DNA of 64,000 nucleotides from Pirellulales bacterium (GTDB lineage: Bacteria; Planctomycetota; Planctomycetia; Pirellulales; UBA1268), in the NCBI GenBank assembly GCA_049695995.1, contig JBAVTF010000085.1, positions 2,205 through 66,204 on the forward strand, read 5' to 3'. Positions 10,120-64,000 of this stretch are shown here, in pieces. The notes under the pieces are model-generated. The model saw only the letters and a list, made by a program, of their open reading frames with translations, had not been told where the DNA came from and ran no database searches. Numbering within the stretch: the stretch's first letter is position 1; each line of letters begins with the position of its first letter. The translations under genes were made by a program, and so were the position numbers.

Positions 10120-10986
10120 TCAGAGCAGCTTGCGGGGACCTTCGGGCCGGAAGAAGTCGTGGAAATTGTTGAGCCCGATCCCGAGGAACAGGTCGAGCAC
10201 GAGGATCAGGACGAACGAATGCACGAAGGCATTGGTGGCTGCCCGTCCCACGCCCTCGGCGCCGGGCGTGCAGTGGAAGCCGTGGTGACAGCTCACCAGG
10301 GCGATGGCCGCGCCGAAGAAAAAGCTTTTGAAGATGCCCATGAGAAAGTCGAAGGCATCGACGTAGGCACGGGAGTTTTCCCAGTAGTGGTGGTAGTCGA
10401 TCCCGAGCAGCACGTGCGAGTAGAGATAGCCGCCGAGCACGCCCATGAAGTCGGCCATCACCGTCAGCGACGGGATGAGCACGAGGCAGCCGAGGAACCG
10501 GGGCACGACGAGATAGTAGATGGGGTTGGCACCCATGCTCTCGAGCGCGTCGATCTGTTCGGTCACCCGCATCGTGCCGAGTTCAGCGGCCATCGCGCTG
10601 CCGACGCGGCCCGCGAGCATCGTCGCCGCGAGCACCGGGCCGAGCTCACGGACGAGCGAGAGGTTGATCACCGAGCCGAGCCGCGTCTGGAGGCCGAGCG
10701 CCTTGAACTGGGCGTAGCTCTGCACGGCGAGCACCATGCCGATGAACAGCCCCGTGAGCGCGACCACCGGCAGCGACATCACGCCGATCTGGTAGAAGCT
10801 CGGCAGAAGCACGTCGCGCCGCTGCCGCCGGGCGAACATCCAGCCGAACGTCTGCAGTGTGAAGATCGCCACGTCGCCGATGCCGGCCACGCTCGACATC
10901 GCGAAGCTGCCAAGGTTGGCGACCATCCGGGCGAGCCAGCCGTTGAGAGCGGGCTGTGGGGTGGCGGGAGTGGGGGAACTGGCCAT
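10120..10986 (-). CDS. mlaE: ABC permease, MlaE-like
   Basis: This is a polytopic membrane protein containing [33 protein letters not shown], the MlaE/YrbE signature region. The ATG at 10986 is preferred; the track start at 11103 adds an Arg/Cys-rich extension. Confidence 0.8.
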
Positions 10987-11118
10987 GGCGAGCGCATCCG
11001 AGAGGGCGTGCGCAGCGGAAGCGCACCACACCCTGCCGGTCGTATCGGCCATGCCGGTCGGGCAGCTTGAGCCGACTGGAACGGCTTTCGGCCACAGCGG
11101 CAATCTGGGCAGGCTGTG

Positions 11119-48109: not shown

Positions 48110-48203
48110 CCGGCGTTTTCGTCAAGGTCTGACGCTCAGGACGCCGATACCACGATTGGGGTTCGGTATCAGGCGGCAAGAGACCGCGCGGCGGGGGCCA
48201 GCG

Positions 48204-48812
48204 ATGATCTGCCATCGCCAGCGCATTGTGTTCGTCCATCTCCGCCGGACGGCCGGGAATTCGATCGAAGCGGCGCTCGGCGGAATCGTGCTCTTCGACC
48301 GGTGGTTTCGCCGGACCGATGTCTGGGACAACCAACTCCACCGCGGTCGGTCGTGGCACAAGCGCGATCGTCGCGGGCATCGCATTCACGCGACGGCCGC
48401 CGAGATCCAGACGCTCTACCCACGGGAGTTCACTCGCTACTTCCGGTTTGCGTTCGTGCGGAACCCGTGGGAGCAGATGGCCTCGCTTTACCTCAGGCTC
48501 CACCCGGGCGACCCGCGCGGTGCTGGATTCGGCGCGTGGCTCAAGCGTTTTGATCTGGAACGAGGCACGGTGCCGCAGGCTAGCCTGTTCGCCGCCGACG
48601 GCAGCTGCCTCGTCGATTTCATCGGCCGCTTCGAGCAGCTGCAGCATGACTTCGATGCCGCCTGCGATCTCGCCGGCATCCCCCGCCGGCAGCTGCCCCG
48701 CACCAACGCTGCGGCCGGGTCGGCGGTAACCGAGATCTACGACCCCGCCTCGATCCGCATCGTCGAGCGGCTCTATGCCGACGACATCCAGCGGTTCGGC
48801 TATGCCGCGTGA
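48204..48812 (+). CDS. Sulfotransferase-family protein
   Basis: FVHLRRTAGNSI is a PAPS 5'-phosphosulfate loop-like motif. It also contains FAFVRNPWEQMASLY and the C-terminal YADDIQRFGY. Confidence 0.6.
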   Translation: MICHRQRIVFVHLRRTAGNSIEAALGGIVLFDRWFRRTDVWDNQLHRGRSWHKRDRRGHRIHATAAEIQTLYPREFTRYFRFAFVRNPWEQMASLYLRLHPGDPRGAGFGAWLKRFDLERGTVPQASLFAADGSCLVDFIGRFEQLQHDFDAACDLAGIPRRQLPRTNAAAGSAVTEIYDPASIRIVERLYADDIQRFGYAA

Positions 48813-54071: not shown

Positions 54072-54407
54072 TTAAAACACGTCGAGGTGGAAGTGGTGGC
54101 CGTGGTGGTACCGCCGCGACTTCGGGTAGTCGTTTTGCCACTGCCGGTTGTAGACCGGAATCCGCATCTCTTGCGGATAGCGGTAGTACAGATCATTCGC
54201 CGACTGCATGTAGCCGTCGGCGTAAAAGTTCTGCGGATACCACACGTATGGATAGTGGTAGAGCCGGTTCCAGTCGCTCTTGTTGTACGAATTGCCCCAC
54301 TGGTAGCCGTAGGCGTTTTGGCCCACGCCCTGCTGGGCAGCCGCATCGGCGGCAGAAAACAGGGCCACGGCGCACACAGCCACCGCGGCAACGAGATGCC
54401 GAGTCAT
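54072..54407 (-). CDS. Small secreted Tyr/Trp/His-rich protein
   Basis: The signal peptide is MTRHLVAAVAVCAVALFSAADAAAQ. The mature part reads YGYQWGNSYNKSDWNRLYHYPYVWYPQNFYADGY...RRYHHGHHFHLDVF. Confidence 0.55.
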   Translation of the reverse strand: MTRHLVAAVAVCAVALFSAADAAAQQGVGQNAYGYQWGNSYNKSDWNRLYHYPYVWYPQNFYADGYMQSANDLYYRYPQEMRIPVYNRQWQNDYPKSRRYHHGHHFHLDVF

Positions 54408-54514
54408 CGGATAGTCCCCCCTCGAGAAAACCGACAGTCGAGGGAATCATCGACGTCCGGCACGACCCGACTTGACGGAAAAACCGTCAGGACCGTCGCG
54501 GCGCGGCATCGGGC

Positions 54515-61795: not shown

Positions 61796-61834
61796 AAAAA
61801 ATAACTCCGCCCGGGAGTTTCCTCCCGGGCGGAG
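61796..61834 (-). terminator. Strong intrinsic terminator for the Cys-rich gene (hairpin may also stop the convergent ABC operon)
   Basis: A perfect 13-bp stem CTCCGCCCGGGAG/CTCCCGGGCGGAG with a 4-nt loop is followed on the minus strand by TTATTTTTT. Confidence 0.8.
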
Positions 61835-61886
61835 CTCACTGGCCGAAGTCGGGCAACAGATCTCCGTTCGACCTATCGTCCGAGAC

Positions 61887-62669
61887 TTACTTGACCGAAA
61901 CCGTCCGGCTCACCGCCACGACCGCCTTGCTGTCGACCTTCTTCGAGGCCGAGGCATCGGGCGTCGGGGCAGCCGGCTCGACCGTCGCACCGCAGGCCGG
62001 CTCGCAGCCACACGCGGGCTCCGCACCGCAGCCGGGCTCGCAGCCAGCGCTGCAGTCGGGCTCGCAGCAGCTGGTGCAGCTCTTGCGGCACTTCTTCGCG
62101 TTGTGGATAGCGCGGAGAAGGTCACGGATCGGGGTCGCACACTTCTTCACACCGCAGCAGCCAGCGGCAGCACCGCAGCTCGGCTCGCAGCAGCCAGCAC
62201 CGGCGTCGCAGGCCGGCTCCGCACAGCCGTTGCCGGCGTCGCAGGCGGGCTCAGCGCAACCGTTGCCAGCACCGCAGGCCGGCTCGCAGCAGCTATCGCC
62301 GCAGCAGCCATGGTGCTTCCGCTTGCACTTCTCGAACAGGCCCTTCAGCCCGCCGAAAAGGTCATGCTTCTTCCGCAGACCGCAGCAGCTCGCGCCACCG
62401 CAGCATCCAGCACCGGCGTCGCAGGCCGGCTCGCAGCAGCCGTTGCCGGCGTCGCAAGCGGGTTCTGCACAGCCGTTACCAGCACAGGCATTGCCAGCAC
62501 CGGCATCGCAGCCGGGCTCGCAGCAGCCAGCACCGGCATCGCAGCCGGGCTCACAGCACGAGGTGCAGCCCTTATGGCCGAGCATCTTGTTCAGGAGCTC
62601 GAAACCGAAGGACTGGCTACAAACGGTGACGCCCAGAACCAGCGCACCGAGAAACATCATACGCTTCAT
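61887..62669 (-). CDS. Secreted cysteine-rich repeat protein (CCEP(A/G)CDAG(A/N)G units)
   Basis: AAGGAG lies upstream of the ATG at 62669. The signal peptide is MKRMMFLGALVLGVTVCSQSFG. About a quarter of the mature residues are Cys, in repeats such as CCEPGCDAGAGCCEPGCDAGAGNACAGNGCAEPACDAGNGCCEPACDAGAGCC. Basic spacers (RKKHDLFGGLKGLFEKCKRKHHGCC) separate the repeat blocks. Confidence 0.7.
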   Translation of the reverse strand: MKRMMFLGALVLGVTVCSQSFGFELLNKMLGHKGCTSCCEPGCDAGAGCCEPGCDAGAGNACAGNGCAEPACDAGNGCCEPACDAGAGCCGGASCCGLRKKHDLFGGLKGLFEKCKRKHHGCCGDSCCEPACGAGNGCAEPACDAGNGCAEPACDAGAGCCEPSCGAAAGCCGVKKCATPIRDLLRAIHNAKKCRKSCTSCCEPDCSAGCEPGCGAEPACGCEPACGATVEPAAPTPDASASKKVDSKAVVAVSRTVSVK

Positions 62670-63102
62670 CGAGCCACATCTCCTTTGCTTGCGGATCACG
62701 CGAGAATCGTCTGGTCCCGTTCTTGAGGTGCCGTCACCCCGAGGTTGTGATCCACGAACTTTTCCGCGACAGGCCTGTCGAGCCATTCCGTGACTCGAGG
62801 AATCGCAGGTTGCTGTCGCCCCCTGGTTGCCCGACGGGCACAGTGATGCCCCGGGGGACAGAGTGGGCTATCGGCGACTCCGTCAAAGCGGCTTGAGGCT
62901 CGTCGAAGGTTTTTTTTCACGGTGTTTCAGCGGTGCGCGTTGCGTGAAGACTGCCGTGCTGCGCGCGTGCGCAAGGGCTGCGGGCGACCGTCATACGACC
63001 GTCACACCTTCGCGCGAAACGCCCGTTCAACCCGCACAGCTTCACACGCGGACCAGCCGCGGTGGTAAACCCTGCGGCCTGTCGTGGAGGTTGCGGGGAA
63101 TG

Positions 63103-63130
63103 TTGACATCCCCATCGCAACCGTTAAACT
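63103..63130 (+). promoter_or_regulatory. Sigma-70-like promoter for the riboswitch transcript
   Basis: TTGACA (63103-63108), a 16-nt spacer and TAAACT (63125-63130) place the predicted TSS just before the riboswitch 5' end. Confidence 0.35.
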
Positions 63131-63139
63131 CTGCCGACG

Positions 63140-63330
63140 ACTCTGGTGGCCGGGAGGAAGCATCTGCTTTCGTCAGGCAAACAGGGAACTCCGGTGTGAA
63201 TCCGGGACGGCCCCGCCGCTGTGACCAGGCGCCGAGGTCGGCTGTGTCGAGCCATTGCGGTGCCTGTGTGGCCCGCGAGAAGGCATGCAGCCGGCTGAGC
63301 CTGGGAGTCAGAAGACCTACCAGGTGTCAG
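63140..63330 (+). promoter_or_regulatory. Cobalamin (B12) riboswitch
   Basis: The conserved core is readable: AACAGGGAACUCCGGUGUGAAUCCGGGACGGCCCCGCCGCUGUGACC (63180-63226), GCCAUUG...GAGAAGGC (63251-63284) and the B12 box GGGAGUCAGAAGACCUACC (63303-63321). This parallels the E. coli btuB leader blocks AGGGAAUCCAGUGCGAAUCUGG...CGCAGCGGUAAGG, GCCAUUCGGUGGGAAG and AGCCCGAAGACCUGCC. Confidence 0.85.
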
Positions 63331-63494
63331 GAGTCTGCCGGACCGCGAGGGCGGAATGGTGGGCACGGTCGAGTGATCGACCGGTCGCAAGGCACTCAGG
63401 ATCCGCTCCTGCAAGCTCCCGCTTCGCCGACGGTCGCGCCTGCGCCTGCATGCGCGTGCCCGGGCTGGGCGTGCGCGTGCAGGTCGGCAGTGGC

Positions 63495-64000
63495 ATGGAC
63501 TCGCTCTCTCCGGGTCGACGCGTCGGCATGACGCTCGTCGAGCTGCTCGTGGTCGTGGCGATCGTGGCCGCACTCGTCGCGCTCCTGCTGCCCGCGGTTC
63601 AGTCGGCCCGCGAGGCCGCGAGGCGGACGAGCTGCATGAACAACCTCCGGGGCATCGGCTGTGCGATCTACGGCTACGAGTCCGCCCGTCGGGCCTTCCC
63701 CGTCGGCTGCCTTGAATGCACCACGAAGGCTCCCCGCAAGCAGATCGCCTGGAATGCCTTCATTCTGCCTTTCGCCGAGGAGCCGGGGGCTGCGGCGGCC
63801 TTTGACTTCACGTTCTCGTATCGGAGCTCCCAAAATCGTATCGCCGCTGGCCATGTCGTCCCGCTCTTCCTCTGCCCGAGCACCTCGCGGACGAACCGCA
63901 CCGGCCCTACGACGGGTGACCGTAACAGGAACGGTCGCTGGGACGCAGGCGACGATCTCGCCTACACGGACTACGGCGGGATGTACGGTGTGGGCTATTC
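63495..64000 (+). CDS. DUF1559-family protein with a prepilin-type N-terminal cleavage/methylation signal (partial; runs off the window; absent from the ORF track)
   Basis: My own translation reads [11 protein letters not shown]|[52 protein letters not shown]...FLCPS. The class III signal has G at -1 and E at +5. The LLPAVQ.AREAARR..C.NNL block is typical of planctomycete DUF1559. Confidence 0.85.

Follow-up and report, generated by a model that had tools for sequence, protein, structure and literature searches.

A cysteine-repeat protein family of Pirellulales with a putative sigma-28-type promoter and a covariation-supported leader RNA

The envelopes of planctomycetes have long been reported to be rich in cystine-linked protein. 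In the chlamydiae, OmcA and OmcB are exported, Cys-rich, disulfide-cross-linked proteins whose synthesis comes late and serves the dispersal form of the cell, and the characterised bacterial metallothioneins are short, cytoplasmic proteins. On the regulatory side, late flagellar genes (e.g. hag of B. subtilis) are governed by sigma-28/FliA with FlgM and by CsrA with FliW, and a GGA in a hairpin loop plus another at the Shine-Dalgarno is the layout of leaders repressed by CsrA. So far, only the YTV-domain cell-wall proteins of Planctomycetales (PMC8567305) have been tied to the cystine-rich envelope. The sigma-28 open complex of P. aeruginosa has a -35 element TCTAAAG and a -10 element GCCGATAA that are 14 nt apart in fliC, with a spacer conserved in neither sequence nor length (PMC12784957), and Planctomycetes are listed among the phyla with CsrA and FliW (PMC4682653). 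Here we analyse a gene for a Cys-repeat protein carried on the reverse strand of a 64,000-nt stretch of a Pirellulales bacterium contig (JBAVTF010000085.1; this whole stretch is called the window below), together with its promoter, its leader and its relatives, and compare it with these systems.

The Cys-repeat open reading frame (ORF) is a true gene under purifying selection. Its frame was preserved in 75 orthologous coding sequences (CDSs), variation was found at third positions (minor-allele fractions of 0.082, 0.079 and 0.235 by codon position), and the comparison with the window sequence gave a median nonsynonymous divergence (dN) of 0.10, a synonymous divergence (dS) of 0.49 and a dN/dS of 0.19. 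The locus is one transcription unit, formed by a predicted sigma-28/FliA-type promoter, a structured 5' untranslated region (UTR) of about 190 nt, a Shine-Dalgarno, the CDS and an intrinsic terminator (Table 1). A previous sequence-only reading of the window had recognised the coding frame, a signal peptide, Cys units of about 11 residues with Lys/His-rich linkers, a Shine-Dalgarno of its own and the terminator, and all of them were recovered here, while none of the findings that it had named as weakening its claim was made; it had missed the promoter and the structured leader, which are the only direct evidence obtained here on the regulation of the gene.

To examine the region upstream, we aligned the 500 nt 5' of the gene from 73 species. 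The -35 element was [CT]TCAAG in 145 of 145 leaders and matches TAAAG of the P. aeruginosa consensus at four of five bases, CTAAAG being present in one leader, and the -10 element was GCCGATA[GCT] in 141 and GTCGATA in 4 of the 145. The spacer between TCAAG and GCCGATA measured exactly 16 nt in every one of them and was variable in sequence. Such constant spacing around unconstrained bases is a hallmark of promoters, and the comparison indicates that the Cys-repeat gene is driven by a predicted promoter of the sigma-28/FliA type, TCAAG-N16-GCCGATAG. As in late flagellar systems, the same motif stands ahead of flgM, in the form TCAAG-N15-GCCGATAA in contigs L106, L107 and L199 (with GTCGATA in L107); the Pfam FlgM model (PF04316) matched in L106 and L199 at 39-42 bits, the cutoff being 25. 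All the occurrences of the motif in the 1.5 Mb of Pirellulales DNA examined preceded a gene of the family, flgM or the gene of one Tyr-rich secreted protein. The window holds four copies against 0.02 expected, a number that none of 100 shuffles reached; two of the extra copies were first taken as chance, and this was revised after the enrichment test.

These additional copies lie ahead of three genes (Table 1). One precedes the gene of a secreted 111-aa Tyr/His/Trp-rich protein (YGYQWGSSYNTHDWNRLYHYPYVWYPQNFY... in the L036 orthologue), which has a signal peptide and no Pfam match; this gene is conserved in L023, L027, L031, L036, L038, L049, L054, L056, L081 and L083, and its promoter motif was also found in L023, L027, L036 and L054. 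A second copy is directly 5' of a Sulfotransfer_2 gene, and a third is 5' of an MlaE permease gene, where it falls inside a mechanically called 327-aa ORF whose true start is probably the Met at 10986. With regard to flgM (93 aa), it lies in some Pirellulales contigs about 1.4-1.7 kb from the Cys-repeat promoter and divergent from it; its promoter is at ~3582 (+) in L106 and ~9030 (+) in L199, and a CACAAGGAG..AAGGAGG stretch also precedes it.

The transcription start predicted by analogy with the P. aeruginosa promoter coincides exactly with the beginning of the structured RNA, a block that among the 73 species is more conserved than the CDS. Single-sequence folding was uninformative on either strand (z of about -1.4 and -0.8), so strand and structure were taken from covariation. 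Compensatory changes are present in the close clade, with G-U intermediates that fit the gene strand only. When a five-helix structure was applied to 53 diverse leaders, 83% of the cells were paired (83-87% overall) versus 31-41% in slid controls (29-41% overall), 20 of the 30 pairs were changed on both sides, and the covariation score was 0.203 (0.19-0.20 overall) versus 0.05-0.09 in the controls (0.03-0.09 overall); none of 500 shuffles reached any observed value. A covariance model recovered 84 full-length leaders at 53-113 bits. In Rfam 15 there was no match for the leader, Cobalamin on the opposite strand being the only one, and a permissive Rfam scan of 62600-63130 gave just one chance match (E = 7.6). 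These data show a new putative cis-regulatory RNA motif with covariation-supported helices, absent from Rfam.

Three domains make up this RNA. In domain A (helices 1 and 2), 11 of 11 pairs were changed on both sides, helix 2 being 78-86% paired, and helix 3 of domain B was 92-94% paired, with one pair varying as UG32/UA25/CG12/GC4/AU3. Domain C, whose helix ends about 10 nt ahead of the Shine-Dalgarno, displayed compensatory changes of GUAGAUCAC with GUGAUCUAC and of GUGAAUCAC with GUGAUUCAC. No covariation is seen in the stem of the distal hairpin, UCGAGUC-A[N]GGA[N]U-GGCUCGA, whose loop reads CA[C/A/U]GGA[N]U. A metagenome scan for this hairpin, with a pattern (TCGRGTCAWGGANYGGCTCGA) that leaves out the close clade, yielded at least 120 stretches; 98 of 120 exact-pattern matches had an N-terminus of the family 41-239 nt downstream, 8-9 more were cut by the contig end, and the remaining ones were hairpin-only chance matches. 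The distal hairpin is specific to the Cys-repeat gene family. The context of the Shine-Dalgarno, AAAGGAGA, does not vary within the close clade and is conserved to 95% or more over 98 diverse leaders, and with a GGA in the loop and another overlapping the Shine-Dalgarno the leader has the CsrA-type layout, as in late flagellar genes, from which it differs in being far longer (~190 nt) and in having three covarying domains. Furthermore, GGCUCGA recurs at the start codon as GUGGCUCGAUG, with GCUCRAUG conserved in the 98 leaders, and the minimum free energy (MFE) fold of the full UTR of the window pairs the 5' strand of the hairpin (CCUCGAGUCAC) with this start region in a duplex of -17.4 kcal/mol. 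If one and the same sequence has to serve two pairings, the lack of covariation in the stem would be accounted for.

Two other pairings were discarded. A long-range anti-Shine-Dalgarno helix, CCGAUAGCC:GGAGAUGUGG, proposed by RNAalifold in the close clade, was invariant at all positions and lost its pairing in the diverse leaders, and its CCGATA is moreover the -10 promoter element with the fixed 16-nt spacer. The hairpin GGGCAU/GUGCCC of the window MFE fold gave way to the homologous UGCCC/GGGCA once the diverse leaders were compared. Two departures from the common leader were also seen. A type-2 leader of about 370-400 nt, with a long-range helix AACGAAGUCGGCGG / CGCCGGCGACUUCGUU, is present over some 400 nt 5' of the gene in L208, L209, L210 and L086 (Rosistilla, Novipirellula and one metagenome), and in one metagenome-assembled genome (MAG; L035:708-953) domains B and C are cleanly deleted and the Shine-Dalgarno region follows immediately on the promoter and domain A, either as a natural variant or as an assembly artefact.

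The signal layout of the product predicts a Sec (signal peptidase I)-type exported protein, and not a flagellar type III substrate as in late flagellar systems. Its N-terminus consists of MKR / MMFLGALVLGVTV / CSQSFG, followed after the predicted cleavage by FELL, with a basic n-region, a hydrophobic h-region and small residues at -3 and -1; the layout is kept across the family, and Q19, S20 and G22 show little or no variation. A lipoprotein (signal peptidase II), a status that the sequence-only reading had proposed to check, was rejected: no canonical lipobox [LVI][ASTVI][GAS]C is present, the sequence being V-T-V-C or V-G-L-C with Val/Leu at -1. In several family members Ala or Ser takes the place of Cys17.

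The repeats consist of eight strict 11-aa units, C[CA]EPxC[DG]A[GA]xG, whose first residues are aa 38, 49, 67, 78, 127, 138, 149 and 160, and of degenerate CEPxC units within aa 202-228. Cys makes up 44 of the 260 residues (17%) and 43 of the 238 of the mature form (18%), not one residue in four as had been estimated, a figure that corresponds to the inside of a single unit only (3/11, 27%). AlphaFold2, run with a 56-sequence alignment, gave a mean predicted local distance difference test (pLDDT) of 50, about 40 in the repeats, and modelled helices only at residues 4-29 (signal peptide and FELL motif) and in both linkers, which are basic and amphipathic; the low-complexity repeats were without a fold, and the model suggests that they are disordered. 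Searches with the protein returned no match in Pfam and NCBIfam at E <= 10 and none in the Protein Data Bank (PDB). To see whether the C-terminal tail might serve in sorting, it was looked for on other proteins, and across the 1.5 Mb of DNA it occurred on family genes only.

Table 1. Features of the Cys-repeat locus and of other window loci mentioned in the text; positions are those of the 64,000-nt window.
Feature	Position	Strand	Remarks
-35 element TCAAG	62892..62896	(-)	invariant in 72-sequence alignment
-10 element GCCGATAG	62868..62875	(-)	7/8 bases of sigma-28 consensus GCCGATAA
Predicted transcription start	~62860	(-)	by analogy with P. aeruginosa
Structured 5' UTR	62670..62860	(-)	near-invariant across 73 species; covariation; covariance-model match
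Covariance-model match	62748-62862	(-)	73.7 bits
Leader domain A	62819..62857	(-)	outer helix CCCCC/GGGGG, internal loop, hairpin UGCCC-GUC-GGGCA
Leader domain B	62766..62819	(-)	outer helix GCGACAG/CUGUCGC, inner helix CCUG/CAGG, distal hairpin
Distal hairpin UCGAGUC-ACGGAAU-GGCUCGA, GGA loop	62778..62798	(-)	invariant; single match in window
Leader domain C	62693..62755	(-)	helix GUGGAUCAC (62747-62755) with GUGAUCC (62693-62699), closing variable insert
Shine-Dalgarno AAGGAG, second GGA	62680..62685	(-)	10 nt ahead of ATG
CDS, Cys-repeat protein	61887..62669	(-)	260 aa; TAA stop included in span
Signal peptide, aa 1-22	62604..62669	(-)	predicted cleavage between SFG and FE; n/h/c layout from sequence
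Cys-repeat block 1, aa 35-96	62382..62567	(-)	repeat units; AlphaFold pLDDT ~40
Linker 1, aa 100-120, KKHDLFGGLKGLFEKCKRKHH	62310..62372	(-)	amphipathic helix, near-invariant in family; modelled helix 106-118
Cys-repeat block 2, aa 121-173	62151..62309	(-)	repeat units and family alignment
Linker 2, aa 177-196, TPIRDLLRAIHNAKK	62082..62141	(-)	family-conserved; modelled helix 180-196; 10-residue block with mean pLDDT 82
Cys-repeat block 3, aa 197-229	61983..62081	(-)	degenerate CEPxC units
C-terminal tail (..PTPDASAS..VVAVSRTVSVK)	61890..61982	(-)	conserved; P237, D238 and A241 invariant
Intrinsic terminator	61803..61836	(-)	15-bp stem, 11 GC pairs, then T-run ATTTTTTG
Antisense Pro/Gln/Ser-rich ORF	61891-62793	(+)	shadow ORF
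Promoter of riboswitch, TTGACA-16-TAAACT	63103-63130	(+)	sigma-70-like
Cobalamin riboswitch (RF00174)	63127-63338	(+)	80.6 bits
DUF1559/SBP_bac_10 pseudopilin-like gene	63528-64000	(+)	PF07596, 98 bits
Promoter motif TCAAG-N16-GTCGATG	54448-54475	(-)	precedes Tyr/His/Trp-rich protein gene
Tyr/His/Trp-rich protein gene	54075-54407	(-)	111 aa
Promoter motif	48122-48149	(+)	precedes Sulfotransfer_2 gene
Sulfotransfer_2 gene	48204-48812	(+)	PF03567, 54.8 bits
Promoter motif	11043-11070	(-)	precedes MlaE permease gene
MlaE permease gene	10120-10986	(-)	PF02405, 276 bits

A first search for relatives of the Cys-repeat protein gave 123, with identities of 45-80%. Some 95 were strong matches, every one was annotated as hypothetical, and none had a Pfam domain. 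In a scan of one genome per species, 223 genomes encoded the family, mostly freshwater-lake Pirellulales MAGs, and a profile search built with distant relatives raised the number of proteins to at least 703. A hidden Markov model search, of the kind that the sequence-only reading had suggested for the repeat, was carried out exhaustively with HMMER on 1.84 billion cluster representatives, and yielded 445 clusters (50% identity) at E <= 1e-3 and 240 at E <= 1e-10, all of them of about 200-300 aa, matching end to end and without fused domains. Cultured members are Rosistilla oblonga (CA51_05110), Novipirellula artificiosorum (Poly41_12050), Rubripirellula lacrimiformis and Allorhodopirellula solitaria, and Ca. 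Laterigemmans also belongs here; no R. baltica homologue was among the matches listed. The order of elements is fixed (signal peptide, FELLDRMLG, block 1, KKHDLFGGLKGLF, block 2, TPIxDLLRAIHxAKK, block 3, PTPDASAS..VVAVSRTVxAK), and the number of repeats varies freely, orthologues measuring 190-292 aa. Distant relatives (31-46% identity) have this layout too, with different Cys motifs (CEPAC, CGCE), the tail taking the family-wide form PPAPxxDPSAS..RRVIQAS..R. These results show that the protein founds an unannotated, single-architecture family across Pirellulales.

Over 194 mature members, Cys amounted to a median of 17.5% (range 6-25%) and aromatics to 1.8%, with a median isoelectric point of 6.1; the number of Cys was odd in 103 and even in 91, and the spacings CC, CxxxC and Cx5C dominate in the family. 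Members with just 6-8% Cys retain the N-terminal motif, the helices, the tail and CGNGC pairs. Among them, L104, L194, L196 and L200 have had most Cys repeats replaced by Gly/Lys/Asp/Gln-rich repeats (DGKGGCGNGCSQKG). A Pfam scan of 56 members found only the keratin high-sulfur B2 models, PF13885 in 4 and PF01500 in 3 of the 56, the best PF13885 match having an E of 5e-7. The entry P0345 (Rubripirellula lacrimiformis K227x_06970) bears the UniRef label 'Stigma-specific protein', after a plant Cys-rich family, a name that looks like a composition-driven annotation artefact.

By sequence, the protein is a member of neither the keratin-associated, the chlamydial Omc, the YTV nor the metallothionein families. 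It shares with the keratin-associated high-sulfur proteins (Keratin_B2, Keratin_B2_2) short CCxPxC-type repeats, a high Cys content, the lack of a globular fold and a presumed role in disulfide cross-linking, but these are eukaryotic and intracellular, the window protein misses their models, and the likeness is compositional rather than one of homology. OmcA and OmcB are also exported, Cys-rich proteins of the Planctomycetes-Verrucomicrobia-Chlamydiae superphylum; in sequence, however, they are not similar (no Pfam family was matched at E <= 10), and the parallel is one of functional analogy only. Like the YTV proteins (PF07639), the family is Cys-rich, planctomycete-specific and a candidate for the envelope, but it has another repeat and another architecture, and that model was matched neither by the window protein, at E <= 10, nor by the 56 members. 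With metallothioneins (bacterial SmtA/BmtA type and others) it has in common a high Cys content, almost no aromatics and an unstructured apo-form, and differs from them in lacking any sequence match and in the length of its mature form (238 aa versus roughly 50-80 aa).

We believe that this is probably a protein of the swimming stage, located at the cell surface or in the envelope, and linked neither to B12 nor to classical metal storage. A FliA-like sigma factor, held in check by FlgM, would transcribe the gene, and this control would place it in the motile (swarmer) programme with other envelope genes sharing the promoter. The leader would gate translation, most likely by means of a CsrA-type protein bridging the GGA of the loop and that of the Shine-Dalgarno, and the alternative pairing of the 5' strand of the hairpin with the start region may assist. 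Export by Sec and the predicted cleavage would leave a disordered, thiol-rich protein outside the cytoplasm, which could act as an envelope or surface matrix held by inter- and intramolecular disulfides, with the conserved helices and the C-terminal tail as attachment points. This location is favoured because the protein carries an export signal; because a random Cys parity and a free number of repeats suit a matrix over a fixed fold; because of the resemblance to the CCxPxC keratin-associated proteins; because low-Cys members keep helices and tail; because the same type of promoter stands ahead of other envelope genes; and because no metal-related context was found in the gene neighbourhoods examined. 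For the explanation as a whole, that of a FliA-driven, leader-gated, cross-linkable exported envelope or surface protein, we see the arguments as evenly balanced, and the assignment of the protein to a cross-linkable envelope or surface component is tentative, a shade under even, with some room left for roles other than those considered below.

Several observations weigh against this explanation. The -35 element has a C where the sigma-28 consensus has an A, and the 16-nt spacer is 2 nt longer than that of P. aeruginosa fliC (14 nt). MlaE and the sulfotransferase are unusual sigma-28 targets, and tblastn searches of the 1.5 Mb of Pirellulales DNA for flagellin, CsrA, FliW and FliA found none. 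The alternative pairing is weaker outside the close clade (mean of -9.6 versus -6.3 kcal/mol for shuffles, z = -1.65), and the cultured Pirellulaceae homologues keep the promoter but carry the different, longer type-2 leader, which has no covariance-model match. The protein is not a YTV protein and, having just 6% Pro, is a poor fit to the classical Cys/Pro-rich wall composition. Lastly, the composition of the family (median Cys of 17.5%, aromatics of only 1.8%), the His residues beside the conserved helices and the GHGHGHGHGNGHGNGHG His-run of P0118 also fit a metal-thiolate protein.

This leads to a periplasmic or surface metallothionein-like sponge, a possibility already raised by the sequence-only reading, in which reduced thiols would bind Cu(I), Zn, Cd or Co in thiolate clusters with the aid of His and Asp/Glu, so that metal would be buffered or stored outside the cytoplasm. 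In addition to the composition and the His, the repeats without a predicted fold, the random parity of Cys, the acidic residues beside Cys in the CEP and CDA motifs and the CGC and CxxxC motifs of distant members are consistent with it. Nevertheless, we consider it rather unlikely. No metallothionein family was matched by the window protein in Pfam, NCBIfam or PDB, or by any of the 56 members scanned with Pfam, and the statement that the repeat has no characterised metallothionein counterpart holds for every curated family searched. The spacing of Cys is mainly CC and CxxxC, not the CxC or CxxC of metallothioneins; the architecture is otherwise retained where Cys falls to 6-8% and the spacers are Gly/Lys-rich; and the predicted export is unlike what is found in characterised bacterial metallothioneins. 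Besides, none of the gene contexts examined contained a metal transporter, a regulator that senses metals or a known metal riboswitch, and a sigma-28-type promoter is not expected for metal homeostasis.

As to the leader, instead of being gated by a CsrA-type protein it might be a true riboswitch sensing a small molecule or ion (a thiol, a sulfur compound or a metal) and choosing between the GGA hairpin and the pairing that sequesters the start. The covariation-supported structure with its extremely conserved core, the two mutually exclusive pairings possible in the window clade and the long 5' UTR of every family member (upstream intergenic gaps of 576-727 nt) would agree with this, and the absence of the motif from Rfam would make it a new class. 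However, the conserved nucleotides lie in one hairpin stem and loop and in the Shine-Dalgarno/start region, not in junctions or internal loops, and the tandem hairpins form no multi-helix junction. The motif precedes a single gene family, with no metabolic clue to a ligand, the cultured Pirellulaceae homologues have a different leader, and the L035 MAG does without domains B and C, all of which makes a riboswitch improbable in our view.

A third alternative concerns the role of the protein at the surface. A chemistry rich in Cys, Tyr and His is characteristic of biological adhesives, and the Cys-repeat protein could be a swarmer-stage adhesive or holdfast-type protein that, with the Tyr/His-rich one, would form a cross-linked glue or coat at settling. 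Both are low-complexity proteins with signal peptides and are preceded by the same type of promoter, which for the Tyr-rich gene is conserved in the four contigs given above. This argument rests wholly on composition and on a common promoter type, there is no physical link between the two proteins, and the window clade is made up of freshwater lake MAGs without an attachment stage documented here, so that we regard an adhesive as quite doubtful.

A function linked to B12 or cobalt, through co-regulation with the divergent cobalamin riboswitch, is very improbable. The opposite-strand location described by the sequence-only reading was correct, the distance to the ATG being 457 nt and not 430, and a divergent riboswitch was found about 450 nt upstream in the 5 close-clade loci tested, where the Cys-repeat gene is flanked by this riboswitch-led operon and, convergently, by an amino-acid ABC transporter. 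Yet the riboswitch has a sigma-70-like promoter of its own and drives the DUF1559 operon, and it was absent from all 5 of the distant relatives that were tested, in which the gene lies beside Cupin_2 and two pyrroloquinoline quinone (PQQ)-type beta-propeller genes; therefore, the adjacency is clade synteny and not a family trait, and the B12 riboswitch next door is in all likelihood unrelated to the Cys-repeat gene.

The least probable alternative, of practically negligible weight, is that the real gene is the antisense ORF, which exists as described and is open in 70 of 75 orthologues because the codons used have no stop complements, or a 299-aa sense ORF from 62786 in which the 'signal peptide' would be internal, as in the extended ORFs of some gene callers (P0021, P0026, P0057): both were already refuted, the former as a shadow ORF by a dN/dS of 1.8 in the exact antisense frame versus 0.19 in the sense frame and by the variation at sense third positions, and the latter by an upstream start that is in frame with the ATG at 62669 in just 31 of 71 orthologues, by an upstream stretch conserved at all three codon positions that covaries as RNA, and by the invariant AAGGAG ahead of that ATG.

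Returning to the envelope or surface reading, the Cys-repeat family is a second broad, unannotated family of predicted exported Cys-rich proteins besides the YTV proteins, and its homologues are present in cultured, genetically tractable Pirellulaceae. Beyond YTV work, literature searches on Cys-rich or metallothionein-like planctomycete proteins and on FliA/FlgM in planctomycetes found nothing relevant. TCAAG-N16-GCCGATA provides a concrete candidate alternative-sigma promoter motif for Planctomycetes, validated on flgM and usable to define the regulon genome-wide, and the leader provides a covariation-supported 5' UTR motif missing from Rfam. With the protein family, the promoter motif and the leader in hand, a connection of motility control with the remodelling of planctomycete envelopes becomes directly testable. 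A much broader and clearly speculative picture, which we hold to be unlikely as it stands, would have a FliA-FlgM (possibly CsrA-FliW) checkpoint timing the exported envelope or surface set of the motile dispersal cell, with the Cys-repeat family as its main disulfide-cross-linked 'armour' or adhesive, its translation gated by the new class of leader RNA; this set would be a counterpart of the chlamydial elementary-body complex and a candidate for the classical Cys-rich planctomycete envelope resistant to sodium dodecyl sulphate.

Some minor observations concern annotation and neighbouring genes. Besides the 'Stigma-specific protein' name, an error exposed here is that gene callers often push the ORF upstream through the leader RNA (62670-62786 (-) in the window; P0021, P0026, P0057 and P0100), and these false extensions add 40-180 aa to the N-terminus and bury the signal peptide. 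In related contigs the riboswitch operon contains DUF1559/SBP_bac_10, an unknown gene of 231-236 aa, an S-adenosylmethionine (SAM) methyltransferase, ABM, GATase and MoeA. Control of a DUF1559 operon by B12 is out of the ordinary. Finally, contigs L003, L005, L007, L025, L027 and others, which carry orthologues 68-91% identical, are titled 'Candidatus Kuenenia' or 'Planctomicrobium piriforme', whereas contigs with a similar orthologue identity are titled Pirellulales, and those labels look like taxonomic misassignments.

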